Assembly (NCBI GenBank): GCA_964562615.1
Contig: CAZLUD010000001.1
Location: 38,937 to 102,936 of the forward strand
Direction of reading: 5' to 3'
Source: an uncultured Candidatus Saccharibacteria bacterium
Lineage (GTDB): Bacteria; Patescibacteriota; Minisyncoccia; Phycocordibacterales; UBA12088
DNA: 64,000 nucleotides
The notes under the pieces were generated by a model, which had not been told where the DNA came from, ran no database searches, and was given only the letters and a program-made list of their open reading frames with translations. The position numbers were made by a program, and so were the translations under genes. Each line of letters opens with the position of its first letter. The stretch's first letter is position 1. This document shows, piece after piece, positions 6,819 to 62,227 of this stretch.

Positions 6819-8888
6819 CTATTTTCGCTTCCATCTCTTGCGCGCCTTTTTTGCTCCATCGTCTCCCATAAGCTCTGCAATTTCGTCTCGCAGAATGGCG
6901 GCAGTCTCAAAGTCTAGTAATTTTACCGCTTCTTCCATTTGTGTGCGTTTTTCAGCAATGGTTGCCTCTGGGTTGTTGTCGTATAGCGCTCGGTCTATTT
7001 CAAGTAATGCGCCGACCGCCTTTTTGTGTTCGGTTCGAAGGTGTTCTGTGATGTCATTAATAGATTTCTTGATACTGGTTGGTGTAATATTATGAGCAAC
7101 ATTGTATGCGTGTTGCACTTCACGTCTGCGACGTGTCTCGTTAATCGCTTTACTCATTGAGTCAGTCACCTCGTCCGCATACAGTATCACCTTACCTTCG
7201 ACATTTCGTGCAGCTCTTCCCATGGTTTGCATCAGGGATGTTTCTGAGCGCAAAAAGCCTTCTTTGTCAGCATCAAGTATCCCCACCAACGTTACTTCTG
7301 GTAGATCAAGACCCTCACGCAACAAGTTTACTCCTACCAGCACATCAAATGTCCCTTTTCTAAACTCAGTGAGTGTGGTGATTCGGTCAATGGTTTTTAC
7401 ATCGCTATGCAGATACTCTGCCTTAATATCTTTTTCTTTGAGAAATTCAGCAAAGTCTTCTGCCATTTTCTTGGTAAGAGTAGTCACAAGCACTCGTCCT
7501 CCCTTTTTTACTGCCGTACTTGTCTCGTGTATAAAATCTTTTACTTGTCCGCCGTACTTGCCTTTAGCAAGAATCGGACGAACCTCGATTTCGGGATCAA
7601 GTAGTCCTGTTGGGCGCACTATCTGCTCTGCAATGCCACCCATTGGCGGCACTGAATGTTCCTTTTCATAAACACCAGGAGTTGCCGAGGTATAGATTGT
7701 TTGCCCCACTCGAGCCTCAAATTCAGTAAAGGTAAGTGGTCGATTATCTTTTGCGCTTGGTAATCTAAATCCATGGTCAACCAGTGTCTGCTTTCGCGAT
7801 TGGTCACCAGCAAACATGGCCCTGAGTTGTGGCACCGTCACATGAGACTCATCAATAATGGTAATAAAGTCAGGTGAGCCGTCTTTATGATGTGGAAAAT
7901 AATCAATGAGCGTATACGGTGGATCACCAGCGTTTCTTCCATCAAAATGTCGTGAGTAGTTTTCTACCCCATTGCAATATCCAACCTCTCGTATCAGAGC
8001 AAGGTCATAGTTCGTTCTACGTTTGAGACGCTCTGCTTCTAGAATTTTTCCTTCTTTCTCAAACACCTTTAATTGCGCCGCAAGCTCAGCCTTAATATCT
8101 TTTGCAGCGCGCTCACGTTCTTCTTCAGGAGTTACGTAGTGCTTTGCAGGGAAAATAAAAATACTATCTACCTCTTTTACGAGCGCTCGAGAGACAGGGT
8201 CAATGATTGATATTGATGATATACCTGAACCCATAAATGCTACTCGATAAATAATCTTTTCATTGATGGGCATTATTTCAAGCACATTTCCTCTCCCTCT
8301 AAACTCCCCCGGCGAGAGGTCTGCGTTAGTACGGGTAAAATAAATCGCCACAAGCTTTCTTACCATTTCAGCCCTCGTTATTGTCACCCCTTTTGCCAAT
8401 TTGACATTAACCTTTTCATACTCACTTGGGGAGCCAAGTCCGTAAATACATGATACTGATGCCACCACAATGACATCGGTTCGAGTGAGGAGTGCTTGAG
8501 TTGCCGAGTGACGCAAGCGATCAATCTCTTCGTTTACCATTGCCTCCTTTTCAATATAGGTATCAGACGTGGGCATGTACGCCTCTGGTTGATAGTAATC
8601 GTAGTACGAAACAAAGTAGTGCACTGCCGCATCAGGAAAGAACTCTTTATATTCTTGCGCGAGCTGTGCTGCAAGTGTCTTGTTATGAGCAATAACAAGC
8701 GCAGGCTTGTTTACCGTTGCAATTACATTAGCGGCAGTAAATGTCTTGCCTGAACCAGTTACACCAATAAGGGTCTGGTGTCGAAGACCCTTTTCGTATC
8801 CTGATAGCAATGTCGAAATAGCCTTGGGTTGATCACCTGAGGGCTTATACTTTGATACCAGGGTAAATGGGTTGCGTGACTTTGCCAT
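6819..8888 (-). CDS. uvrB: Excinuclease ABC subunit B
   Basis: LIGVTGSGKTFT Walker A, YDYYQPEAY motif and C-terminal UVR domain (ILRDEIAELM). Confidence 0.95.
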   Translation of the reverse strand: MAKSRNPFTLVSKYKPSGDQPKAISTLLSGYEKGLRHQTLIGVTGSGKTFTAANVIATVNKPALVIAHNKTLAAQLAQEYKEFFPDAAVHYFVSYYDYYQPEAYMPTSDTYIEKEAMVNEEIDRLRHSATQALLTRTDVIVVASVSCIYGLGSPSEYEKVNVKLAKGVTITRAEMVRKLVAIYFTRTNADLSPGEFRGRGNVLEIMPINEKIIYRVAFMGSGISSISIIDPVSRALVKEVDSIFIFPAKHYVTPEEERERAAKDIKAELAAQLKVFEKEGKILEAERLKRRTNYDLALIREVGYCNGVENYSRHFDGRNAGDPPYTLIDYFPHHKDGSPDFITIIDESHVTVPQLRAMFAGDQSRKQTLVDHGFRLPSAKDNRPLTFTEFEARVGQTIYTSATPGVYEKEHSVPPMGGIAEQIVRPTGLLDPEIEVRPILAKGKYGGQVKDFIHETSTAVKKGGRVLVTTLTKKMAEDFAEFLKEKDIKAEYLHSDVKTIDRITTLTEFRKGTFDVLVGVNLLREGLDLPEVTLVGILDADKEGFLRSETSLMQTMGRAARNVEGKVILYADEVTDSMSKAINETRRRREVQHAYNVAHNITPTSIKKSINDITEHLRTEHKKAVGALLEIDRALYDNNPEATIAEKRTQMEEAVKLLDFETAAILRDEIAELMGDDGAKKARKRWKRK

Positions 8889-29155: not shown

Positions 29156-30955
29156 CTAGCTTTTAGATTTATTTTTTGATCGCTCACTCTCCTTCAAAAA
29201 TCTTTTTCGTAGACGAACTGACTTTGGTGTTACCTCTAGAAGCTCATCATCTGCCATTATTTCAAGACCGATTTCAATGGTAAGTGTTAGTGGTGGCACA
29301 AGATCAAGCGCTTCATCAGAACCTGATGCGCGTACGTTGGTAAGCTGCTTACCCTTAGTTGGATTTACTGCCATCTCTTCACCCTTTGAGGTGTTTCCGA
29401 TTACCATACCTTCATATACCTCGGTAGCAGGGCCAATGTAGAGCGTGCCTCTATCTTGTAGATTCCAAAGAGAAAATCCAAGTGCCTTTCCGGTAGCCAT
29501 AGAGATCATAGAGCCAACAAATCGCTTCTTTACTTCTCCTGCATATGGCTTAAAGCCAATAAATCGAGAACACAAAATACCCTCACCTTTAGTATCAACA
29601 ATAAATTGGTTTCGGTAACCAAGGATTCCACGAGTTGGTCCTTCAAATATAAGTCGCACGGTATTTCCCTCTGGGATCATGTTTTGCATGATAAACAATC
29701 GCTGAGAGAGCTTTTCGATAATTGCTCCTTGAAAGGCAACCGGAGTATCAACTATGACTTCTTCAAATGGTTCCTTTTTTCCATCAGCATCTTCATGGAA
29801 GATTACCTGGGGCTGCGACACCGCAAGCTCGTACCCTTCACGGCGCATGTTTTCAAGCAAAATCGAAATATGCATTTCTCCGCGTCCATATACCTTGAAA
29901 AAGTTTCCATCTGAAAAATCAACTTGTAGTCCTACGTTTATCTCAAGCTCTCGTTCTAGTCGAGCCTTTATCTCTCTACTGGTAACAAATTTGCCTTCCT
30001 TACCGGCAAATGGTGAGGCGTTAGGCATAAACTCAAGTGCAATGGTAGGTTCATCAATAGCAATTGCTGGGAGTGGCTCAGCTCGCTCGTCTGTGGTAAG
30101 CGTGTCGCCAATGTTGATATCAGGAAAGCCGGCAACAAGAACAATGTCGCCCGCATATGCTTCGGTTACTACCTCTTTTGAAAGACCAACAAAGGTAGAG
30201 AGCTTAATTACTTTTCCACGTCGTGGCGCGCTTCCTTGTTGTAGCAAAAAGAGGTTAGCCCCATCTTTAATACATCCCTCATACACACGAGCAATCGCAA
30301 GTCTGCCGGTAAAGTTATCGTATCCAAGGTTAAATACCTGCGCACGAAGCACGTCACCCTCTGTGTATGCCTTTGCAGGTGGTACCTCTTCAAGAATAGT
30401 ATCAAGGAGAGGAGTTAGGTCAGTCGCAGTGTCTTCAAGTTTTCGCTTTGCGACGCCCTCTCTACCAATTGCATATACCACTTTAAAATTTGCCTGTTCA
30501 TCACTAGCGCCTAGTTCAAGAAACAACTCAAGCACCTGCTCCTCACATCGATGTGGGTCTGCGGCAGGTTTGTCGATTTTGTTAATTACTACGATAGGCT
30601 TGAGTCCTAGCTCAAGAGATTTTTTTAGCACAAAACGAGTTTGTGGCATTGGGCCTTCCTGCGCATCTACCACAAGAAGAACAGAGTCAATCGAGCGTAG
30701 CACTCGCTCTACTTCTGATCCAAAGTCGGCGTGTCCAGGCGTGTCTACGATATTAAGCTTTGTACCCTTGTATGAAAGAGAGGCATTTTTAGCATAGATA
30801 GTAATACCCCGCTCTTGTTCGAGCGCATTAGAATCCATGGTGATTGTGTCATCAGTCACCGCACCCGTTTGACGCATAAGCGCATCGGTAAGGGTGGTTT
30901 TGCCGTGGTCTACGTGTGCGATTATAGCTATGTTGCGTGTTTCTGTGTGTTGCAT
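29156..30955 (-). CDS. typA: Translational GTPase TypA/BipA
   Basis: IIAHVDHGKTTL G1 motif, DTPGHADF, NKIDK, and EF-G-like domains III-V plus a C-terminal domain. Confidence 0.9.
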   Translation of the reverse strand: MQHTETRNIAIIAHVDHGKTTLTDALMRQTGAVTDDTITMDSNALEQERGITIYAKNASLSYKGTKLNIVDTPGHADFGSEVERVLRSIDSVLLVVDAQEGPMPQTRFVLKKSLELGLKPIVVINKIDKPAADPHRCEEQVLELFLELGASDEQANFKVVYAIGREGVAKRKLEDTATDLTPLLDTILEEVPPAKAYTEGDVLRAQVFNLGYDNFTGRLAIARVYEGCIKDGANLFLLQQGSAPRRGKVIKLSTFVGLSKEVVTEAYAGDIVLVAGFPDINIGDTLTTDERAEPLPAIAIDEPTIALEFMPNASPFAGKEGKFVTSREIKARLERELEINVGLQVDFSDGNFFKVYGRGEMHISILLENMRREGYELAVSQPQVIFHEDADGKKEPFEEVIVDTPVAFQGAIIEKLSQRLFIMQNMIPEGNTVRLIFEGPTRGILGYRNQFIVDTKGEGILCSRFIGFKPYAGEVKKRFVGSMISMATGKALGFSLWNLQDRGTLYIGPATEVYEGMVIGNTSKGEEMAVNPTKGKQLTNVRASGSDEALDLVPPLTLTIEIGLEIMADDELLEVTPKSVRLRKRFLKESERSKNKSKS

Positions 30956-33981: not shown

Positions 33982-35442
33982 CTACTTAGAAAGATCAAGT
34001 ATTTCATCAATACGTATCTGCTCTACAAATTCTGGTACGTGCGATACCAGTATCATCGCTCCCTTGTATGCATCAAGCGCCTTAGCAATAACCGGTAGAT
34101 GTCTAAAGTTTATGTGGTTTGTTGGCTCATCAAGAATAAGTAGCCCCGGCTTTTCAAGTACAAGCCGAGCAAATGCCACTAGCCCCTTTTGCCCTTCAGA
34201 GAGGCGTCCAATCTTAGTCTTGATCATCTCTGCATCAATCAAAAATCCTGCCGCGGTAGCACGCAGGCGCTCTTCAATCTTTTGATCCATCACTTCAAGG
34301 AGAGATTCAAGTACGGTATGTTCAAAATTAAGCGTAGAAAAATCCTGCCGATAGTAACCAATGCGCAGATCTCGCTCTAGCTCTACACCTTTTGCGGTGC
34401 CATTTGCAATACTCTCAAGCAAGGTACTCTTACCTATACCATTAGGACCACTAAGCAGTAGGTGTTTGTTTTTATTGAGTGATATATCAACGTTGTGCGT
34501 CACCACTTTGTGGTTTTTCATGGTACTTAGTGAGGTGATGTGTACCAACTTTCCTGAAAGCTCTTCTTGATGCGGGATGGTAAAAGGGCGAATAGTCTTA
34601 TCCTCCTTTCGTACCTCAACCATATCCTCTTCCATCTGCTCGGCCTTTTCGCGCATGCGCTTGGCTAGTAGTCGCATCTGTCCTCCTTTATTTGCAAAAA
34701 AGTTTGCTTTATCTTTATTTTCTTGCGCGGCCTTTGCAAGCTGGGCATTTTTTCTATTTTCTTTTTCGATTCGTGCGCTAATGTCTCTAAGTACATCTGT
34801 ATAGTTACCCGCGTATTGCTCTATCTTTTTGGTGCGTACATCAAGATACAAGACGCCTTCAGTAAAGGCATTAAGAAACTCAGTATCGTGCGAGATAACA
34901 ATAATCGATTTTTTATAGTTTTTGAGAAAGTCAGTGAGATGCGCAATACCCGCCTTATCAAGATTGTTAGTTGGCTCATCAAGAAGAAGAAGGTCTGGTT
35001 CTTGAATAAGCGCTGATGCCAAGAGTAAGCGTGCTTGCTGTCCACCAGAAAAGGTATTCATGATTCTGTCATGCACCTTTTCGTGCCCCTTCAGGTGTAC
35101 TACCTCAAGTACCTCATCGATTCGGGGATCAATGTCATGTACTTTCTTAGGAAAACATTTCTGAAAAAACTCTCTCACCGAGAGGGTAAGCTCATCTCGA
35201 GGTATCACCTGTCGCGATAGTGCTATAGATAATCCGTGAGAAATATTTATTTTACCCTCTTCAGGAGTGTGGGTACCCATCATAAGGGAGAAGATGGTAC
35301 TCTTTCCTGCGCCGTTTTGCCCCATGAGCGCAAGCTTTATACCTCTTCGCACTGAAAAATCCACCACATCTAAAATGGGCTTGTTGTGTCCAAACTCAAA
35401 TGACACTTTTTCAAATGAAAGAATTGCTTCTGCTTTCGACAT
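33982..35442 (-). CDS. ABC-F family ATPase (tandem ABC cassettes, no transmembrane domain; Uup/EttA-like)
   Basis: Two Walker A motifs (GQNGAGKST and GPNGIGKST) and two LSGG signatures (FSGGQQARL and LSEGQKGLV), with a charged linker between them. Confidence 0.8.
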   Translation of the reverse strand: MSKAEAILSFEKVSFEFGHNKPILDVVDFSVRRGIKLALMGQNGAGKSTIFSLMMGTHTPEEGKINISHGLSIALSRQVIPRDELTLSVREFFQKCFPKKVHDIDPRIDEVLEVVHLKGHEKVHDRIMNTFSGGQQARLLLASALIQEPDLLLLDEPTNNLDKAGIAHLTDFLKNYKKSIIVISHDTEFLNAFTEGVLYLDVRTKKIEQYAGNYTDVLRDISARIEKENRKNAQLAKAAQENKDKANFFANKGGQMRLLAKRMREKAEQMEEDMVEVRKEDKTIRPFTIPHQEELSGKLVHITSLSTMKNHKVVTHNVDISLNKNKHLLLSGPNGIGKSTLLESIANGTAKGVELERDLRIGYYRQDFSTLNFEHTVLESLLEVMDQKIEERLRATAAGFLIDAEMIKTKIGRLSEGQKGLVAFARLVLEKPGLLILDEPTNHINFRHLPVIAKALDAYKGAMILVSHVPEFVEQIRIDEILDLSK

Positions 35443-36562: not shown

Positions 36563-36994
36563 CTACCAATTTAAATACGTAATAGTGAGCTGAAGACACG
36601 TAGCAAAGGTGCCCCACAAAAGGTACGGAATATTTATGTAGACCGCCCAGCGCATATCTGGCACTGCATACCACAGCGCAAGAAGCGCCCACACCAAAGT
36701 AACCACCACAAGCAAGATATCGATAGATGCAAGAAGATTATTTTGTAAGCCAAACTGTATCGGCGTAAACGCAAAGTTAAAGATTAGGTTAAGTGCAAAT
36801 GGCAGTGCAACCATCCACGAAATCACTCCCGTGTAGGCTTTATAAAATACCATGCTAAAGGTAACCGCGATTATGGCATACAGCACTGTCCAGACAGGAC
36901 CAAATAGCCACGCAGGAGGCGACCACCACGGTTTAACAAGAGCAAGATAGTACGTAGGTTCATTCATAGAGACAGTATACCATTTGACAATCAA
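36563..36994 (-). CDS. tspO: TspO/MBR (tryptophan-rich sensory protein) family membrane protein; apparently lacks TM1 (see findings)
   Basis: LVKPWWSPPAWLFGPVWTVLYAIIAV is the hallmark TspO motif, followed by four transmembrane helices. The ORF-track start is TTG; the first ATG gives MNEPTYY at 36967. An in-frame TGA lies 9 codons upstream. Confidence 0.65.
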   Translation of the reverse strand: MIVKWYTVSMNEPTYYLALVKPWWSPPAWLFGPVWTVLYAIIAVTFSMVFYKAYTGVISWMVALPFALNLIFNFAFTPIQFGLQNNLLASIDILLVVVTLVWALLALWYAVPDMRWAVYINIPYLLWGTFATCLQLTITYLNW

Positions 36995-37012
36995 TGCTGT
37001 GCTATATATATT
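36984..37012 (+). promoter_or_regulatory. Sigma70-like promoter TTGACA-17 nt-TATATT driving plus-strand transcription into the TspO-LUD spacer
   Basis: Consensus -35 and a good -10. The predicted transcription start (~37019) coincides with the first base of a 10 bp closing stem. Confidence 0.45.
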
Positions 37013-37018
37013 CGACGT

Positions 37019-37210
37019 GGTTCAGGCAAACACCGGCTTGGAATGCACGCAGGTGCCGCTTGCGTTTAGGGTTCGAAGCCCTTTCGGTGGGGTCAACGAC
37101 TTATCCTTCCTGCGAAGCATAAGTGGGAGACAGAGAAACCAGTGCTCAGCACATAGGCGTACAAGACCTGCCTGAACCACCACGCCACCCATTATTATGA
37201 GTGGCGTTTT
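37019..37210 (+). ncRNA. Candidate small RNA (~190 nt): promoter, a 160 nt body closed by a 10 bp terminal stem (GGTTCAGGCA…TGCCTGAACC), then a hairpin and T-tract terminator
   Basis: All elements read from the sequence. No plus-strand CDS lies downstream. Several internal helices are possible. The architecture (5' and 3' ends paired, irregular long hairpin) is 6S-like but unverified. Confidence 0.4.
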
Positions 37211-37243
37211 GCATACTATATATAATAAGACGATAAGCTTCAC

Positions 37244-37861: not shown

Positions 37862-37930
37862 ACAATAGTTATGTTACTGATTAAAGGTGAATACTCCACA
37901 ATAGTGCACTATACCACGCTCCCTACGTTC

Positions 37931-40318: not shown

Positions 40319-40768
40319 TCATTCGCTAGATGCATGAGTAACGATGGCATCATAAATATTGTCCTCCTTCAAAACAATTTGTTGCGCATATACTATACCC
40401 CTTGGGAGATAGTTGGGGTGATAGAAACGTAGCTGACCTTGATCAGCGCTCAGATCCTCCGGAATACTTGAGAGAATTCGAATATCGATAGTCGATTGAG
40501 GTGACTCGGATACATCATTCCCTTGGCCTACAATTCGTTTTGTTCGCTGTATTGCTACAATCTTATCTGTACTCAACATTTTATTGAGAACACTAATCAG
40601 ATCGGAACTGTCTTTGAACCTTCGAGTGAAGTGAGTCTCTAACTCTTTCATAGTGACCCCTAGATGGCCATTGCCACCACAGGTCTGGTGATTCCGCTGT
40701 CGACGCTCTTTGTAAACGATAATTACTGCCGAAAGAAACTTCTGTTTCGAGGCAAGTGTACCAGTCAT
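40319..40768 (-). CDS. Hypothetical protein (149 aa), compositionally distinct (GC-richer codons)
   Basis: ORF track; no family recognised. Confidence 0.4.
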   Translation of the reverse strand: MTGTLASKQKFLSAVIIVYKERRQRNHQTCGGNGHLGVTMKELETHFTRRFKDSSDLISVLNKMLSTDKIVAIQRTKRIVGQGNDVSESPQSTIDIRILSSIPEDLSADQGQLRFYHPNYLPRGIVYAQQIVLKEDNIYDAIVTHASSE

Positions 40769-41022
40769 CCAACGCTCCTCCAGTTGGTCTACTTACAGTA
40801 AATACAATTTAGGCAATTAATTCAAGGTGTGTATGTCGCAAGGTGCTGAATCATGACTATCAGCATTTTTCATTTCCGAAGAAATAATAGTGCCTGTCCA
40901 TACAATTTCTGCCTTGGTGAAGAGCTTGATTTAATACATTTCTATATATATCCTATATAGTGGTTGTGAACTAAAAACTACTCACAGTTTGCAACAACCT
41001 AACCAGTCTGGGAGAAACGTCA

Positions 41023-41556
41023 ATGCATCTACAAGTGTCTAACCCCGACCCCCACAAGGTCACACGACTCAGCGAAGACACAATCCCCTCAGTAAAGGGA
41101 GAGTGGTATAACTACCGCTCTGTATTCACACCAATGCGACCGCTTGGCTACCTCATGAAGTGCAAGGCGAACAAGGACAGGCCATTGTGTTTCGTTGAGG
41201 AGAACGATGGTGTCGACATAACCTTTGTGTTCGACGAGGAGGTTGTTCAGGTTTGCTCACCAGACTCGGAGCACTCCCTGAAGATGATGGCTGGCCGAGT
41301 TGACCCTAAAACTCTCAAGAAGGTCAACTTCGTTCAAACATCTCTAACCAAAGTGCAGTTTGACGCTATTCGAATAGGTAAAGATGTTGTCAGTCTACTC
41401 ACGGTGTGCCAGAGCGGATCGGTGGCAAATTGTTTGCTAGTAACGAAGGGTATAATTCTGGCTATCAAAACGCAAGCAGGGATATACTGCTTGATGCGAG
41501 CTACAGAGGTAAACCCTCACAAGGTATGCTTTGATGCATGCCACATACTTCTCTAG
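41023..41556 (+). CDS. Hypothetical protein (177 aa), GC-richer codon usage than its surroundings
   Basis: ORF track. Third-position G/C-rich codons (ccc, gac, aag, gtc) contrast with neighbouring AT-rich genes. No family recognised. Confidence 0.45.
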   Translation: MHLQVSNPDPHKVTRLSEDTIPSVKGEWYNYRSVFTPMRPLGYLMKCKANKDRPLCFVEENDGVDITFVFDEEVVQVCSPDSEHSLKMMAGRVDPKTLKKVNFVQTSLTKVQFDAIRIGKDVVSLLTVCQSGSVANCLLVTKGIILAIKTQAGIYCLMRATEVNPHKVCFDACHILL

Positions 41557-41582
41557 AATTACTTTCAGCACACAGCTCTGCC

Positions 41583-41614
41583 GAGAAATCTCTCGGCAGA
41601 GCTGCAAGTCTTTA
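41583..41614 (+). terminator. 14 bp perfect hairpin cagctctgccgaga/tctcggcagagctg downstream of the 41023..41556 gene
   Basis: Perfect inverted repeat with a 4 nt loop. No T-tract follows. Confidence 0.45.
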
Positions 41615-41687
41615 GAATAATTGTTGAGTAATAGCAATAAAGTTATACTCAGTAATACTTTTTTAAACTAAATTAAGTAAATAAATT

Positions 41688-42158
41688 ATGCATATACGAG
41701 AATTTGAAAAAAATGACCAGGAAGCTGTAGAAAAAATATTTGCCTTATATTGGACAGACCCAGAGTTTCTTAAAGAGCTTTCAGATGAATTGGAATCGTA
41801 TATCCAAATACACCAACATAGTGAGTCTGGTTTCTTTGTTGCTGAAAAAAATGCGGAGATTTTAGGAATAGTCGGTTTTAAGAAATTGCCTGATTACCTA
41901 AAACCATTTGCAAAAACCAGTAGGCCTGTTGAGTTTTATATTATTGCTGTGAAGAATAAAAGAGCTGGCGTAGGAAAGATCTTGAAATCAAGACTAATTG
42001 AAGAAGCGTATAAATCTGGTTTTAGTGAGATTCTTCTGTATAGTCCAGGTTCTCACAATGAATCCTGGAAATTTCATGACATTCTAGGTTTTGAAAGAGT
42101 TGGAGAGGTGACTCCCCCAGAAGATGATATTGGACACGTCTGGCGAAAGATTCTGTAG
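41688..42158 (+). CDS. GNAT-family N-acetyltransferase
   Basis: FYIIAVKNKRAGVGKILKSRLIEEAYKSGFSEILLY matches the acetyl-CoA-binding motif A of GNATs. The gene and its upstream region are very AT-rich. Confidence 0.7.
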   Translation: MHIREFEKNDQEAVEKIFALYWTDPEFLKELSDELESYIQIHQHSESGFFVAEKNAEILGIVGFKKLPDYLKPFAKTSRPVEFYIIAVKNKRAGVGKILKSRLIEEAYKSGFSEILLYSPGSHNESWKFHDILGFERVGEVTPPEDDIGHVWRKIL

Positions 42159-42202
42159 ATGCTTTCTATGGGCAGGTCAGGACCCATTCTTCACTTGTAT
42201 AT

Positions 42203-42757
42203 TTAATCGTGACTGTCCCTATTCCCTCTCTTCTGAATCTTTTTTCCAATTTCTTTTAAATCCCTCAAGAAAACATTCTTATTGTTTACCATCCTATAGG
42301 AGTTTGGATGTTTGATGCAGAATACGTGTTTGAAACTTGGAAATGTGGGGAGGAAAAGTTTCTCTGTATTTTTTCCAATACATAGAATCGAAGTAGTTTC
42401 CTTCACCCCGAGAATTTTAAATTGCTTTTCCAAACTCTTAATATTATCTCTCATAAATTTTCCATCCTTCTCTTTCCATTTCCGAATTACAATCCCAGAT
42501 TTTGGTTCAGGACAAAATATAAGATCGGTCATGTATGAACCTAGAAATGGCGACCTTGAAAATCCTTCTAAATACCATTTGTCAAAACGATGTCCAACTT
42601 TGTGATAATTCTCTCCAAACTTAATCACCGCAGCGGGATTGAGACCAATTATGACAATTCGGCAATGCAATAATTTTGTAGTTTTCCTGGGATCAAATGG
42701 CCAAATCGCAAACGATGCCGTTGTAAATTGTTTCAGTTTTTTAAGTTTTTCTTTCAT
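42203..42757 (-). CDS. Uracil-DNA-glycosylase-superfamily-like protein (Mug/TDG-like motifs)
   Basis: HCRIVIIGLNPA resembles UDG motif 1 (GINPG), and CIKHPNSY resembles motif 2 (HPSP). Low-moderate confidence. Confidence 0.35.
   Translation of the reverse strand: MKEKLKKLKQFTTASFAIWPFDPRKTTKLLHCRIVIIGLNPAAVIKFGENYHKVGHRFDKWYLEGFSRSPFLGSYMTDLIFCPEPKSGIVIRKWKEKDGKFMRDNIKSLEKQFKILGVKETTSILCIGKNTEKLFLPTFPSFKHVFCIKHPNSYRMVNNKNVFLRDLKEIGKKIQKRGNRDSHD
42204..42223. repeat. 20 bp direct repeat taatcgtgActgtccctatt, copy 2
   Basis: 19/20 identity to 40202-40221. Confidence 0.55.
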
Positions 42758-42808
42758 ATAAAATTTGGGTCATGGAGGAAACAGGGACGACATCCGAACT
42801 ACACTTTT

Positions 42809-43450
42809 TTAGTTATTCAATACTTCTCTTAAGGCCATGTCTACTCGTTTAAACGTAAAGTAAAATCCTTTTACAAAATCATCCTTTGCAAAATCTTCAA
42901 GGCCTGGAATACATCTTTTTTCAGCAGATAGCTTTGGATCAAGCTGGACGTTTATATCAAAAGGATGACATCCACCTTCATAGAGACTATATCCTAAATT
43001 GTAATAATATTCAGCTCCAGTAGCCATTGTATTCAAGTCCTCACGAATTTCCTCGCCAAGAACCACTTCAATGCGAGGTATAACGTTATAGTAGTTATCA
43101 AGTGCGAGTCTTAATTTTTCTAACCGACTTCTAAAGGCACTATCAGTCCAGTGCCTCTTATCCGGGAATTTGGGTTCGCCTTCTGAATCCCAAACAATCC
43201 CCCCTCTTAGTGCCGTCTCTTCAACGTTAATATCGGTTGTTTTAACTAAAGCTAGAACGTCACGAAGGTCGTATATTGCAACAAGCGCATCTCTTGCAAC
43301 ATTGTATTTATCTAAACCTCTTGTTTCTTCATACCAAACATTTAGAGCCAGAAAGGCTATAGCAACTAGTATCCCTTGGAGAAATACATTTATCCATACT
43401 GCAATTGAGTCGGTCTTTATTGCTTTTAGTTTTCTTAAAAAATTTCTCAT
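42809..43450 (-). CDS. Hypothetical membrane-anchored protein (213 aa)
   Basis: ORF track; one N-terminal transmembrane helix; no family recognised. Confidence 0.4.
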   Translation of the reverse strand: MRNFLRKLKAIKTDSIAVWINVFLQGILVAIAFLALNVWYEETRGLDKYNVARDALVAIYDLRDVLALVKTTDINVEETALRGGIVWDSEGEPKFPDKRHWTDSAFRSRLEKLRLALDNYYNVIPRIEVVLGEEIREDLNTMATGAEYYYNLGYSLYEGGCHPFDINVQLDPKLSAEKRCIPGLEDFAKDDFVKGFYFTFKRVDMALREVLNN

Positions 43451-43696
43451 TACTAGGTGTTATTCTTACCAACCATGCAGGGATAATGGGGACTGGGACA
43501 ATATTCAAGCAAATATCGTGTCCTAATTACTCTTCGGTCTTCCCACTCCCAGCTACTGCAACTCGAGCTGTTCTTGGCATAAATATATTAATATCACACT
43601 TTATTTGATTTTATTGTCCTTGTCCTTATTTCTATCTTAAGGCTCCTTTTTGTTTTGCTTCCTTCGCTTTGTCTAAGAGTTTTTGCAAATCCATAT

Positions 43697-43945
43697 TTAC
43701 TTGAATTTAAGCTTGTCTCCGAAGAACCACAAAAAGAAAGCTGCGCCAGCAAAAAAGTAGGCGGCTTCAGTATATCCTAAAACTTCCGCACCTATGGCTA
43801 AAAATAAACTTACTATCCAATAGAAACCAAGGTCTTTGTGAGCGTTGTGTGCTCCGCCAGAATAAATACTGATAATAATTATGCCTAAAATTCCAAGAAC
43901 TATGTAGTTAAGAATCATGGTGTAAATTATAACCCCTCCAATCAA
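43697..43945 (-). CDS. Small membrane protein (82 aa, three predicted transmembrane helices)
   Basis: ORF track; hydrophobic throughout. Confidence 0.35.
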   Translation of the reverse strand: MIGGVIIYTMILNYIVLGILGIIIISIYSGGAHNAHKDLGFYWIVSLFLAIGAEVLGYTEAAYFFAGAAFFLWFFGDKLKFK

Positions 43946-44378
43946 GTTGTCCCTTGTAAGACGCTGCCGGGAAGTTATTTGAACTGGAGTTGATCTGTAC
44001 GATTATTTGAGCAATTCCAACAATTATTGAAATAATGATTGCCGCAATAGCTATTCGAGTAGCACGTTTACCACCTTCTTGTGCCATTTTTAGCTCCAAA
44101 TAGTCGACCGCAGCGGCAATACCTTGAGCGCTTAAATAATATACTTCCCGAAGCTTGCGGCCTTTAGGAAGAAATTCTTCGGAAATGATCCAGATTAGTG
44201 GAGCATTTCCATTTAGTCCGTTGAAAAACATCCAATGAATCCACGTCCATTCCTCATCAGACAAATTAAGAGCGTCTTTCATTTCTGCTTCTGTAAAGCC
44301 TGTATGTTGTTTTTCATACGCCCACAGTAGCGTACGTACGTAGATAGATTTTTCTGGTTTTACATCCATAATCCCCAT
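43908..44378 (-). CDS. Hypothetical protein with a C-terminal transmembrane helix
   Basis: ORF track 43908..44489. Start moved to the internal MGIMDV because the upstream part overlaps the inverted tRNA-fragment hairpin. Uncertain. Confidence 0.3.
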   Translation of the reverse strand: MGIMDVKPEKSIYVRTLLWAYEKQHTGFTEAEMKDALNLSDEEWTWIHWMFFNGLNGNAPLIWIISEEFLPKGRKLREVYYLSAQGIAAAVDYLELKMAQEGGKRATRIAIAAIIISIIVGIAQIIVQINSSSNNFPAASYKGQLDWRGYNLHHDS

Positions 44379-44535
44379 TGTATCGTTTTGGACAGATTTG
44401 CTAAGCGACGCGACTTGAGCGCGAGAACCTATCACGACTTGGCTGCCGAACCTCAAATCTTCACTCCTTGGAAACCCACGGTTTTCCATAGCCTTCCTTC
44501 ACGGGAAAACAGCTGTTTTCCCGACCCCTTTCGCG

Positions 44536-44552
44536 TTCGAATCCAAGTCCGA
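44536..44552 (+). repeat. Inverted 17 nt copy of the tRNA-Gln 3' end (gttcgaatccaagtccg) 26 nt beyond the tRNA 3' terminus
   Basis: The reverse complement is identical to tRNA positions 51-67 (T-loop to acceptor). It forms a long hairpin with the tRNA 3' half. Confidence 0.55.
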
Positions 44553-44574
44553 CATCGCTCATTTCATTCGCTAG

Positions 44575-44645
44575 CTGCCGGACTTGGATTCGAACCAAGA
44601 TACACGCCTCCAAAGGGCGTAGTCCTACCATTAGACGATCCGGCA
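44575..44645 (-). tRNA. tRNA-Gln (anticodon UUG)
   Basis: Reverse complement TGCCGGATCGTCTAATGGTAGGACTACGCCCTTTGGAGGCGTGTATCTTGGTTCGAATCCAAGTCCGGCAG folds as a cloverleaf with anticodon loop CTTTGGA, U1:A72 and G73 (Gln identity). CCA is not encoded. Confidence 0.85.
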
Positions 44646-46331: not shown

Positions 46332-46425
46332 GTATGGCTTAGTATAGCAGAGGTTTATGGTAGCCAAAACTCCACACAAAAAGCGCCCATAGACGGCGCT
46401 TTTTGTGTGGAGTTTTGTTGAGTGA

Positions 46426-59845: not shown

Positions 59846-59928
59846 GCTGGGGTGGCGGAATGGTAGACGCGATTGACTCAAAATCAATTGCCCGAAAGGG
59901 TGTGAGGGTTCAAGTCCCTCCTCCAGCA
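59846..59928 (+). tRNA. tRNA-Leu (anticodon CAA), type II with a long variable arm
   Basis: GCTGGGGTGGCGGAATGGTAGACGCGATTGACTCAAAATCAATTGCCCGAAAGGGTGTGAGGGTTCAAGTCCCTCCTCCAGCA. Anticodon loop CTCAAAA, long variable stem-loop, discriminator A. CCA not encoded. Confidence 0.85.
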
Positions 59929-59951
59929 CAAACGAGTGAAGCGAGTGTAGT

Positions 59952-60053
59952 ACTGGAGGAGAACAGTACCTTCGTACTGTTCGTAGGGACTTGCACCACA
60001 AGAGTATTTCCATTTTACTAACTCACTTTGTTCGTAAGTAAAATTGGTCATGA
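59952..60053 (+). repeat. Repeat unit R1 of a tRNA-Leu-associated repeat family (~100 nt)
   Basis: The core (gggacttgcaccacaagagtatttccattttactaactcactttgttcgtaagtaaaattggtcatgacc) aligns with R2 and R3. It carries the hairpin aacagtaccttcgtactgtt, which is also present with compensatory changes in R3. Confidence 0.6.
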
Positions 60054-60115
60054 CCGGAGCCTTATCGAGCGAATGCGAGATGGCGAGGTCCGACCTAATT
60101 TTTACGACCGTAGGG

Positions 60116-60250: not shown

Positions 60251-60330
60251 TGCTGGAGGAGGGACTTGTACCACAAGGGCATTTCCATTTTTCTAACTCG
60301 CGTTGCTCGTAAGTAAAATTGGTCATCGCC
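60251..60330 (+). repeat. Repeat unit R2; it begins with an inverted 18 nt copy of the tRNA-Leu 3' end (tgctggaggagggacttg)
   Basis: About 85% identical to R1 and R3 over ~70 nt; 37 nt identical to R3. Confidence 0.6.
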
Positions 60331-60497
60331 GTAGGCGGTCTACGATTTTGCGAAATGAAGTGAAGCAAAATTGTCGCCGAGCTGGGGTCGAGAGTGCTTA
60401 GTGGTTTAGAACGTAGTGAATAAACTACTTAGCAACTCGTGACCAAGTCCTCCAACACTCAAGAAATATAGCCAAAAATCTCAACAAGTATATTTAC

Positions 60498-60873: not shown

Positions 60874-61773
60874 ATGTCAATGAGTAAGCAAAAAGCAATT
60901 GCCGTAGTGGGTCCAACTGCCTCAGGTAAAAGTGCCCTAGCTATAACCCTTGCAAAAGAGATACACGGAGAAGTTATCTCTGCTGATTCACGTCAGGTAT
61001 ATGAAGGATTTGATACCACCACCGCAAAGGTGACGCCGGAAGAAATGTTAGGTATTCCTCATCACTTACTAGATATTGCCCCTATTGAAAGAGAGTACAC
61101 CGTCGCAGACTTTGTACACGATGGAAAGGCGGCAATTACTAGTATCGCCGCAAAAGGTGCTATTCCTATTATTGCAGGTGGTACTGGATTTTATATAGAT
61201 GCACTGCTGTTTGGACAATCTTTACCCCAAGTACCACCAAACCAAGTGCTTCGTGCATCACTTACTACAATGACCACCGATACCCTTTTTGCCATGCTAC
61301 AAGCAAAGGATCCTCACAGAGCCGCTACAATTGAACAACAAAATAAGCAGCGCCTCATCAGAGCTCTTGAAATAGTAGACACACTTGGAGTAGTGCCTCC
61401 TCAAGCAACTATGAGCGACGCACCGTACGACACGCTATGGATAGGTATCCTGTGGCAGCGAGATGAGTTAATCCAGCGAATACACGAAAGGGTTTTACAC
61501 CGTGTAGATAATATGATTACAGAAATCAGCAATGAGAGGAATCGCCTCACCCCTCAAATTGCCTCACGTCTTGGCTTTGATTTTACCCTCACCCTTTCAT
61601 ACGTAGAGGGCGCAATGACAAAAGACGCACTTATAGATGCTCTTACACAAAAGGATGCTGCCTATGCCCGCAGACAGATGACGTGGTTTAAACGAAACAA
61701 GCAAATCACCTGGCTTTCGCCAGAAACACTTCCATCGTCTGCCATTGATCTTGCGCGGCGATTTCTTGCGTAG
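60874..61773 (+). CDS. miaA: tRNA dimethylallyltransferase
   Basis: AIAVVGPTASGKSALAITLA P-loop, SADSRQVY, and IAGGTGFY. Confidence 0.9.
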   Translation: MSMSKQKAIAVVGPTASGKSALAITLAKEIHGEVISADSRQVYEGFDTTTAKVTPEEMLGIPHHLLDIAPIEREYTVADFVHDGKAAITSIAAKGAIPIIAGGTGFYIDALLFGQSLPQVPPNQVLRASLTTMTTDTLFAMLQAKDPHRAATIEQQNKQRLIRALEIVDTLGVVPPQATMSDAPYDTLWIGILWQRDELIQRIHERVLHRVDNMITEISNERNRLTPQIASRLGFDFTLTLSYVEGAMTKDALIDALTQKDAAYARRQMTWFKRNKQITWLSPETLPSSAIDLARRFLA

Positions 61774-61821: not shown

Positions 61822-62002
61822 ACTGAAGCTTTGGCATGGCAAAGCTCAGCATATGCGATATCTGTGGCGGGCATTGCCACGCCGTTGCGTATGCGAAGGC
61901 GGGCCCACTCCGATTGGCGTCAGCTCACTAAGCACGTTGTGCTAAGTGGCTCCTGCCCGACCTCGCCTGTCGTGCTCGCTATGCTCCGCGCGACATGGCT
62001 CC

Positions 62003-62115
62003 GGTGCTGACCAATTTTTGTTACGAGCACTGCGAGTTAGAAAAATGGAAATGCCCTTGTGGTACGAGTCGGAACAAACAGCACGAAGGTGCTGTTTTGT
62101 GTTCCCTTCACTCGC
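62003..62115 (-). repeat. Repeat unit R3 (inverted orientation relative to R1/R2)
   Basis: Reverse complement aligns with the R1/R2 core. It contains the hairpin aacagcaccttcgtgctgtt, covarying with the R1 hairpin. Confidence 0.6.
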
Positions 62116-62227
62116 TAGACGCTCGTTGCGGGCCCACTCCGACTCGAACGGAGGACGCTGGTTTTGGAGACCAGAATTTTACCTCTAAACTATAGGCCCG
62201 TTATATTTGATTCCCTCAGGTGGCGTA

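Follow-up and report, generated by a model that had tools for sequence, protein, structure and literature searches.

A probable deletion allele of a small RNA joining tRNA-like and L1-stalk-like domains in the LUD-TspO spacer of an uncultured patescibacterium

The DNA analysed here, a window of 64,000 nucleotides (nt) from contig CAZLUD010000001.1 of an uncultured patescibacterium, carries a plus-strand element in the spacer at positions 36968-37243, between the minus-strand genes for a LUD-domain protein and for TspO. We conclude with considerable confidence that this element is a real RNA gene, and that the copy present in the window (form W) is a deletion allele of an RNA in which a domain resembling a transfer RNA (tRNA) is joined to a domain resembling the L1 stalk of 23S ribosomal RNA (rRNA). 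The window copy could not be identified on its own: when scanned against Rfam 15 it matched no family at the gathering threshold and gave only chance matches at E<=10, and at the gathering threshold the whole window returned four tRNAs only. It was the full-length alleles of close relatives that revealed the identity of the RNA, which is in our view the methodological lesson of this analysis.

Together with loci from related assemblies (referred to by L-numbers), the RNA is known in five allelic forms. The cluster of LUD proteins at 90% identity has five members, all of them on contigs with the order LUD-RNA-TspO, and one further locus came from a scan of genome contigs with a conserved block of the RNA; the RNA always lies between LUD and TspO. 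Nothing is missing from the full-length RNA, which measures 260 nt with its terminator in L012, L013 and L014 and 253 nt in L011 and L018, and the ancestral RNA comprised approximately 233 nt plus the terminator. The form shared by the window and L001 is 192 nt long with its terminator and has lost 68 nt between two TCAGCAC repeats; a short form of 193 nt in L016 and L017 lacks about 67 nt between two GGGAGACA repeats, and that of L002 (148 nt) lacks about 112 nt of the 5' interior. Every allelic form is present in at least two independent assemblies, and the alleles are therefore real and not assembly errors. Outside its gap, the window form is 98% identical to L012. The host is a member of the Patescibacteria: homologues of its LUD protein are named Patescibacteria, Yonathbacteria and Adlerbacteria, and the BipA protein encoded in the window (29156-30955) is closest to those of Wolfebacteria (82%), Kaiserbacteria (79%) and Paceibacterota. 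By these protein affinities the host belongs to the Parcubacteria/Paceibacteria, and the Saccharibacteria label on the relative L018 (CAYPBQ010000001.1) looks wrong.

The L1-stalk-like domain became visible when the full-length relatives were scanned alone against the Rfam models with relaxed filters. Under these conditions, L012 matches positions 2128-2213 of the LSU_rRNA_bacteria model (42.3 bits, E=9.6e-12) and L011 matches positions 2119-2249 (37.7 bits, E=3.2e-10), both on the sense strand. The domain is 86 nt long, matches helices H76-H78 of 23S rRNA (RF02541, approximately 2119-2249), and comprises the upper part of H76, H77 and H78. Its three-way architecture is that of the ribosomal stalk, with 5 bp in the upper H76, a bulge of GA, 3 bp in H77 and a hairpin for H78, and it keeps all universally conserved nucleotides, including both T-loop pentamers (UGGGA and UGAGA); all upper-case, highly conserved letters of the LSU consensus are matched (AG.AUA, GUGGGAG.C, GAA, GGAG.C and UGA.AUACCAC). 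In an alignment with the real L1 stalk of the E. coli 23S rRNA, 28 of the 36 positions in the three core blocks are identical. The full-length forms also contain GUGGGAGAC, with GGAGUC as its pairing partner. The helices of the domain vary between L011 and L012 in a manner that maintains pairing: the lower H76-like stem (UCCUUC/GAGGGA versus ACCUCG/CGAGGU) shows three double and one single change, the upper H76-like stem (AGUGG/CCACU versus GAUGG/CCAUC) two double changes, and the H78-like stem (CCAGUGC/GCA(C/U)UGG) one change from G-C to G.U, with the H77-like stem GAC/GUC invariant. Four double compensatory changes are found in the hairpin P8 (CTATGTG/CACATAG in L012, TTGCTTG/CAAGCAA in L011). 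A covariance model of the L1 core built for this analysis (R1) scores L011 and L012 with 85-87 bits and nothing else comparable in 342 kb. The similarity to 23S rRNA ends at the stalk, which is flanked by the tRNA-like domain, P8, the closing stem P1, the promoter and the terminator. The domain differs from the ribosomal stalk in lying outside any 23S gene, within a small RNA that has a promoter and a terminator to itself, in possessing a lower H76 of only 6 bp, in being joined to a tRNA-like domain, and in the fact that the window allele keeps its 5' half only.

Such extensive retention of the universally conserved stalk nucleotides raises the question of whether the RNA might be the organism's real L1 stalk, provided in trans to a 23S rRNA that lacks H76-H78, as in a fragmented rRNA. 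The L1 stalk is indeed absent or incomplete in some lineages of the candidate phyla radiation (CPR; bioRxiv 10.1101/2022.01.07.475337). Nevertheless, the self-closed RNA has no strand with which it could rejoin the 23S rRNA, a tRNA-like domain has no place in the ribosome, and natural alleles delete half of the L1-like domain; we therefore regard a trans-acting ribosomal stalk as highly improbable.

The second component of the RNA is a tRNA-like domain of 59 nt, inserted between two stems that close the whole molecule. The outer stem P1 is formed by GGTTCAGGCA (37019-37028) and TGCCTGAACC (37169-37178), whose ten perfect Watson-Crick pairs had already been recognized in a preliminary description of this DNA; one of them has changed in a compensatory manner from G-C to A-U in L011, and L002 and L011 each have one broken pair. 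The inner stem P1b pairs GGTC (37091-37094) with GACC (37165-37168), the latter adjoining the 3' strand of P1 (together 37165-37178). It is predicted by RNAalifold, invariant in W, L012, L016 and L011, and present in the minimum free energy (MFE) structure of L011. The tRNA-like domain itself (37031-37089, plus strand) has no D-arm. Its acceptor-like stem P2 (CACCGG/TCGGTG, 37031-37036 and 37084-37089; 6 bp) directly abuts the T-arm, a linker with a conserved GG (37037-37047; 11 nt here, 10-11 nt across the forms) stands in place of the D-arm, and an anticodon-arm-like hairpin P3 (37048-37053 and 37059-37064) carries a loop of 7 nt in the window copy and of 6 nt in L011. The T-arm consists of a stem (37067-37071 and 37079-37083; 4-5 bp across the forms) and the loop TTCGAAG (37072-37078); in L011, a U.U apposition in the T-stem is replaced by U-A, and the T-loop is the canonical UUCGAAU. 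Between L011 and L012, P2 has acquired one double and one single compensatory change and P3 one double change. The hairpin ACGCAGG/CTTGCGT noted earlier at 37047-37065 is present and is kept in L011 by a compensatory change from G-C to A-U. The suggested continuation of the closing stem by GGCTTG/CAAGCC finds no support: its pairing is not maintained in L011, and the relatives use those bases in P2 and P1b. In its permissive mitochondrial mode, ARAGORN draws exactly the P2/P3/T-arm fold for the window copy, as a tRNA of the D-loop-replacement type, with results that are inconsistent across the alleles. For L011, Rfam reports a weak match to the mascRNA-menRNA family (14 bits).

In the window, only the 5' half of the L1-stalk-like domain has survived (37104-37152, plus strand). 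It contains the H76-like 5' strands TCCTTC (37104-37109) and AGTGG (37122-37126), the conserved segment AGCATAAGTGGGAGAC (37116-37131), the H77-like GAC (37129-37131), and the H78-like 5' strand CCAGTGC (37139-37145), followed by the loop and GCAC. At the deletion junction (37146-37152) a single TCAGCAC is left of the two that stand 68 nt from each other in the full-length RNA, and downstream of it lies ATAGGCGTACAA (37153-37164), which comprises what is left of the 3' strand of P8 together with the joining segment. The deleted segment held the H78 3' strand, GGAGTC, TGAGATACCAC, the H76 3' strands and the 5' strand of P8. Judging from the aligned alleles, the window copy lost these 68 nt through recombination between the two TCAGCAC repeats, one located in the H78-like loop and the other in the P8 3' strand. 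The promoter, P1 and P1b, the tRNA-like domain and the terminator have been retained. With the R1 model the window copy reaches only 30.1 bits, in a weak alignment that draws in the P1 3' strand and the ACCACC tail, and the surviving half folds as a local hairpin, ACUUAU/AUAAGU within GUC..GAC, in which GGGAGAC is held opposite GUCAAC. For the full-length RNA, a model of such local GUC...GAC hairpins ('hairpin A/B') gives way to the L1-like fold, which has the support of covariation; it may still apply to the truncated window allele. The activity of this allele is most likely reduced or lost, and at best it would retain the tRNA-mimic half and a minimal internal-loop hairpin with GGGAGAC.

A separate observation concerns the 3'-terminal third of the RNA in its full-length form, with the second GGGAGACA, the P8 hairpin, GCGUACGAGACC and UGAACCACC (window 37115-37187, L012 2652-2760 on the minus strand), which resembles a degenerate second L1-like module. 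Together with the weak R1 alignment of the window copy, this resemblance hints that the deletions may have arisen by recombination between two tandem L1-like repeats, and a degenerate second copy would explain why they occurred between the TCAGCAC and the GGGAGACA repeat pairs.

That the element is expressed as a structured RNA from the plus strand is suggested by several lines of evidence. The plus strand folds with an MFE of -84.8 kcal/mol (z = -5.4), a value not reached by any of 200 shuffled sequences; the minus strand is also structured (z = -4.4). G.U pairs seen on the plus strand in P2, P3, P6/H78 and P8 (helix tables), together with the T-loop UUCGAA, which is readable on the plus strand only, favour the plus strand. 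L011 and L012 are 78% identical in the RNA, compared with 56-57% at the third codon positions of LUD and TspO, where synonymous sites are near saturation. This conservation, in conjunction with the compensatory changes, argues for a genuine plus-strand RNA gene. The proposal of an independently transcribed, structured small RNA of approximately 190 nt in the preliminary description is thereby borne out, as the promoter and terminator are conserved as well, and the covariance in related genomes that it had put forward as a check is found in several helices.

A small protein-coding gene, or a miniature inverted-repeat transposable element (MITE) bounded by the 10-bp inverted repeats, would have to be considered in view of the open reading frames (ORFs) of 42-73 amino acids that overlap the RNA region, the prediction of a 56-amino-acid product by the gene caller on one contig, and the perfection of the terminal repeats. 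However, no ORF is conserved across the alleles, the overlapping ones changing frame and strand from one allele to another, and a search for relatives of the 56-amino-acid product among 5.8 billion proteins returned only the ORF itself. Unlike a MITE, the element has no second copy in the window or at any relative locus, and its position is fixed in all alleles. The likelihood of either possibility is, in our judgement, negligible.

The RNA gene is equipped with a sigma-70-type promoter on the plus strand (36984-37012), correctly recognized in the preliminary description, in which the -35 hexamer TTGACA (36984-36989) is separated by a 17-nt spacer from the -10 hexamer TATATT (37007-37012). It matches 11 of the 12 consensus positions, is the best promoter-like site between 36500 and 37700, and places the predicted RNA start at G37019, 7 nt past the -10 hexamer. 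In an alignment with L011, both hexamers are unchanged despite many differences in the spacer. The 3' end (37179-37210, plus strand) resembles an intrinsic terminator, with a conserved ACCA (37179-37182), the hairpin CGCCACCCAT/ATGAGTGGCG (37183-37206) and TTTT (37207-37210). A 7-bp hairpin with TTTT had been described at 37182-37210; the hairpin and its T-run stand (37183-37210), and the stem comprises ten pairs and a single C.A mismatch. Between W and L011 this stem is 100% conserved in sequence while the loop differs, and the C.A mismatch is replaced by C-G in L011. A consensus terminator scan missed this element because its T-run consists of only four T.

The RNA gene is convergent with the LUD-domain gene (PF02589; 37244-37861, minus strand) and divergent from TspO (PF03073; 36563-36967, minus strand), both assigned with Pfam. 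In keeping with the earlier account, no plus-strand coding sequence or ORF was found downstream of it in the ORF list of the window, both neighbours being on the minus strand; unlike a retron RNA, it therefore has no adjacent reverse transcriptase. TspO possesses an extended -10 promoter of its own, TGGTATACT (36974-36982, minus strand), which sits back-to-back with the -35 hexamer of the RNA gene and has the ATG 6 nt downstream, so that the TspO mRNA appears to be leaderless. L011 retains the arrangement TGnTATACT-N6-ATG, and among 55 TspO loci of relatives the layout TGnTAnnnT-N6-ATG recurs in many. With this promoter directly before the TspO start codon, the RNA is not the 5' untranslated region (UTR) of TspO, a candidate that was considered and rejected. 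The other neighbours of the RNA gene encode DUF1801, Cyt-b5, Band7, glyoxalase and zinc-finger proteins.

The compact layout of this locus might suggest an action in cis, in which the promoter of the RNA gene competes with that of TspO, and/or its transcript is antisense to LUD-TspO read-through, and the neighbouring genes are tuned in this way. The -35 hexamer of the RNA gene lies within a few bases of the extended -10 element of TspO, the shared hairpin could terminate both the RNA and the convergent LUD transcript, and every allele preserves the synteny with LUD and TspO. Yet interference between promoters does not require a covarying structure of 233 nt whose core resembles rRNA; TspO has a promoter to itself and appears to be leaderless, and the RNA element is missing from the more distant LUD and TspO loci. 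As the sole explanation we consider a cis effect improbable; it could coexist with a tRNA-like and L1-stalk-like RNA.

The known distribution of the RNA is narrow. It is absent from beside LUD in more distant relatives (LUD proteins 72-74% and 66% identical), and eighty metagenome TspO loci (58-76% identity) yielded no nhmmer match, no orphan T-arm and no L1-like element with our own covariance model. When its longest conserved block, GGGAGACANAGAAACCAGTGC, served as an exact pattern, the matches among genome contigs all belonged to the known clade, and there was none among metagenome and viral contigs; a second exact pattern had no match in viral contigs. In a relative with 72% identity (L003 3119-3312), the spacer that follows LUD is G+C-rich and stem-rich but unrelated in sequence to the RNA, and it folds no better than shuffled sequences (z = -0.7).

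Several considerations weigh against the interpretation of the RNA as a chimera of a tRNA-like and an L1-stalk-like domain. The RNA was found in a single narrow clade only, with five alleles at three levels of divergence, and the covariation rests on essentially two full-length sequences. The standard tRNA detectors miss the tRNA-like fold, with neither the bacterial mode of ARAGORN nor the tRNA and tmRNA models of Rfam finding a tRNA or transfer-messenger RNA (tmRNA) in the RNA region. In the nearest-neighbour energy model the L1-like architecture lies above the MFE by 4.5 kcal/mol in L011 and by 12 kcal/mol in L012, for which local hairpins are preferred (-90.3 versus -78.0 kcal/mol); a gap of this kind is expected for a motif held together by tertiary contacts, yet it is a caveat. 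In addition, three of the five alleles (W, L016 and L002) have lost part of the L1-like domain, and the domain is therefore dispensable, at least in the short term.

These deletions also bear on the possibility that the RNA is a functionless relic, a decaying transcribed chimera of duplicated tRNA and 23S fragments of which the window allele would already be dead. Three independent internal deletions within a small clade, the failure to find a homologue outside it, and the second degenerate L1-like repeat, suggestive of duplication and decay, would all be compatible with such a fate. On the other hand, the full-length form has been kept across the deepest split of the clade, the difference between 78% and 56-57% identity testifies to purifying selection, there are at least 12 double compensatory changes, the promoter hexamers and the terminator stem are conserved, and the similarity to 23S rRNA is confined to the stalk, unlike what would be seen with a random rRNA fragment. 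A relic is consequently an unlikely explanation for the RNA as a whole, although a loss of function of the window allele alone is quite possible.

The preliminary description had likened the RNA to 6S RNA (RF00013), i.e. to a regulator of RNA polymerase in which an irregular, end-paired hairpin mimics open promoter DNA. With 6S RNA it does share its size (about 160-190 nt), the pairing of its two ends, and a promoter and terminator independent of other genes. The comparison fails in other respects: cmscan reported no 6S match at E<=10 for the window copy, L011 or L012, and one allele is only about 120 nt long. Both the MFE and the covariation-supported structures are multi-branched, with local hairpins (P2-P4 and P8) and a three-way L1-like junction, and neither forms a rod with a central bubble; the interior is tRNA-like and L1-stalk-like. 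A 6S-type RNA is therefore very improbable, and the window copy matches no other Rfam family either.

Further candidates were rejected. Signal recognition particle RNA, RNase P RNA and riboswitches gave no Rfam match. A CsrA sponge, suggested by repeated GGA motifs, finds no CsrA motif in the window, and the GGA motifs belong to the L1-stalk consensus. A second exact occurrence of GGTTCAGGCAA at 8746 falls on the Walker A codons of UvrB and is a chance match.

The double T-loop of the ribosomal L1 stalk stacks on the elbow of the E-site tRNA, and Lehmann et al. are said to have pointed out in 2013 that the L1 stalk, RNase P and the T-box Stem I have in common a double T-loop that docks the tRNA elbow. 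If the L1-like fold forms, the RNA would resemble these receptors (the distal part of T-box Stem I, and J11/12-J12/13 of RNase P) in possessing an interdigitated T-loop platform that stacks on the G19-C56 elbow. In contrast to them, it would not bind a separate tRNA but carries a tRNA-like elbow in the same molecule, and it has no specifier loop, T-box sequence, catalytic core or Rfam match to these families. In the ribosome, the entire L1 stalk contacts the E-site tRNA (PMC3602588). The ribosomal protein uL1 recognizes one motif in both the 23S rRNA and its mRNA (PMC2175363, PMC3616713), namely a stem with an internal bulge of the GGGAG type that holds a G-A pair and an unpaired A (PMC3616713). 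Since the L1 stalk both binds uL1 and docks the tRNA elbow, we propose that the full-length RNA would mimic the ribosomal E-site pair, an 'L1 stalk docked on tRNA elbow', and would act in trans as a decoy or scaffold. Its partner would be uL1 (if encoded), another factor of the E-site or the tRNA elbow, or tRNA elbows themselves. We put this mechanism forward tentatively, as a possibility somewhat short of even odds; blended with the identity of the gene into a single explanation, the whole is in our assessment slightly on the probable side.

The closest precedents for an L1-stalk copy outside the ribosome are the autoregulatory uL1 sites in mRNAs, located before rplK/rplA in bacteria and before rplA in archaea, which likewise are non-ribosomal copies of the 23S uL1 site (PMC3616713, PMC2175363) and with which the RNA studied here would share the GGGAG/G-A bulge motif. 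Those sites, however, are minimal stems of 37-41 nt that act in cis within the 5' UTRs of ribosomal-protein operons; the RNA described here, as read from its sequence, is a separate gene with the entire stalk core, the T-loops that contact the tRNA elbow, and a tRNA mimic, and Pfam detects no ribosomal-protein gene in the 64-kb window.

None of the 39 window genes has a Shine-Dalgarno-like 4-mer at -16 to -4 (background 8%; gene starts such as those at 36968-36982 and 37862-37880). In 13 of the 39, a TAnnnT element of the -10 type begins 10-16 nt ahead of the start codon, which agrees with leaderless mRNAs. From these motif counts, initiation in the lineage appears to be leaderless and independent of Shine-Dalgarno sequences. 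Those Parcubacteria that have no anti-Shine-Dalgarno sequence overlap with the OD1-L1 group, from which uL1 is missing (bioRxiv 10.1101/2022.01.07.475337; PMC5220378). Given this overlap and the lack of Shine-Dalgarno motifs, uL1 may be absent from the lineage. Its absence would count against our interpretation by removing the most obvious partner, and a tRNA-elbow or E-site-factor partner would then be favoured.

A more far-reaching variant envisions a free-standing 'E-site in miniature', in which the L1-like module would capture the elbows of deacylated tRNAs, or of factors of the E site, for instance the ABCF ATPase whose gene lies at a distance of 1.5 kb; the tRNA mimic in the same molecule would serve as an autoinhibitory or competing ligand. 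We consider this variant unlikely; if true, it would represent a new class of regulatory RNA, one that controls translation or the traffic of tRNAs via mimicry of a ribosomal site. ABCF factors are ribosomal E-site binders. The ABCF-like protein in question (33982-35442) has 486 amino acids, two ABC_tran domains and no membrane domain. The linkage of its gene to the RNA gene is kept in the relatives L001 and L011 and is not informative.

With regard to its tRNA-like part, the RNA can be compared with YrlA, tmRNA and mascRNA, small noncoding RNAs that likewise have an end-formed closing stem and a tRNA mimic with a canonical T-arm (PMC4201824). YrlA carries the Ro-binding motif GNCGAA(N0-1)G near its 5' end, in the end-formed stem (PMC4201824). 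No such motif exists here: the 5' end reads GGUUCAGGCAAAC, and CGAA occurs in the T-loop only. YrlA genes also lie on the same strand as an Rsr/Ro60 (TROVE) gene and within about 4 kb of it, and no TROVE domain is encoded anywhere in the 64-kb window. The RNA also differs from YrlA in having a T-arm but no D-arm, and in following the normal, non-permuted tRNA order. From tmRNA it is set apart by the lack of a tag ORF, of G3.U70 and of a 3'-terminal T-arm.

Copies of rRNA protein-binding sites in bacteria are known mainly as short cis-acting leaders of ribosomal-protein operons, and tRNA mimics are known from tmRNA and Y RNAs. Neither Rfam 15 nor the literature searched contains a counterpart to a separately transcribed RNA in which a tRNA mimic is linked with an almost complete L1-stalk core that includes the platform for docking the tRNA elbow. 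If the RNA is real and functional, it would offer a natural, compact model of the contact between the L1 stalk and the tRNA elbow, and a handle on translation in the CPR, in which the L1 stalk is often incomplete and many members lack uL1 and the anti-Shine-Dalgarno sequence.

Other features of the window deserve brief mention. Beyond the tRNA-Leu(CAA) gene (59846-59929), the 3' end of this gene recurs in inverted orientation (60251-60272), and a 75-nt direct repeat is located at 59985-60059 and 60260-60334. Inverted repeats of 110 nt (59962-60071 and 61987-62096; 80% complementary) flank miaA (60874-61773), and the miaA segment ends beside tRNA-Trp (62128-62199); the segment 59846-62200 may be invertible or rearranged. 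An inverted duplicate of the 3' end of tRNA-Gln (44535-44554 versus 44576-44595) adjoins the tRNA-Gln gene (44574-44645), beside which a block at 40319-44489 contains mostly unannotated genes, some of them on the plus strand, in a region that is nearly all minus-strand. The block from 40319 to 44645 may be the remnant of an integrated element. Finally, a perfect 23-bp inverted repeat with a 7-nt loop, located between convergent genes at 46365-46417, is probably a bidirectional terminator.

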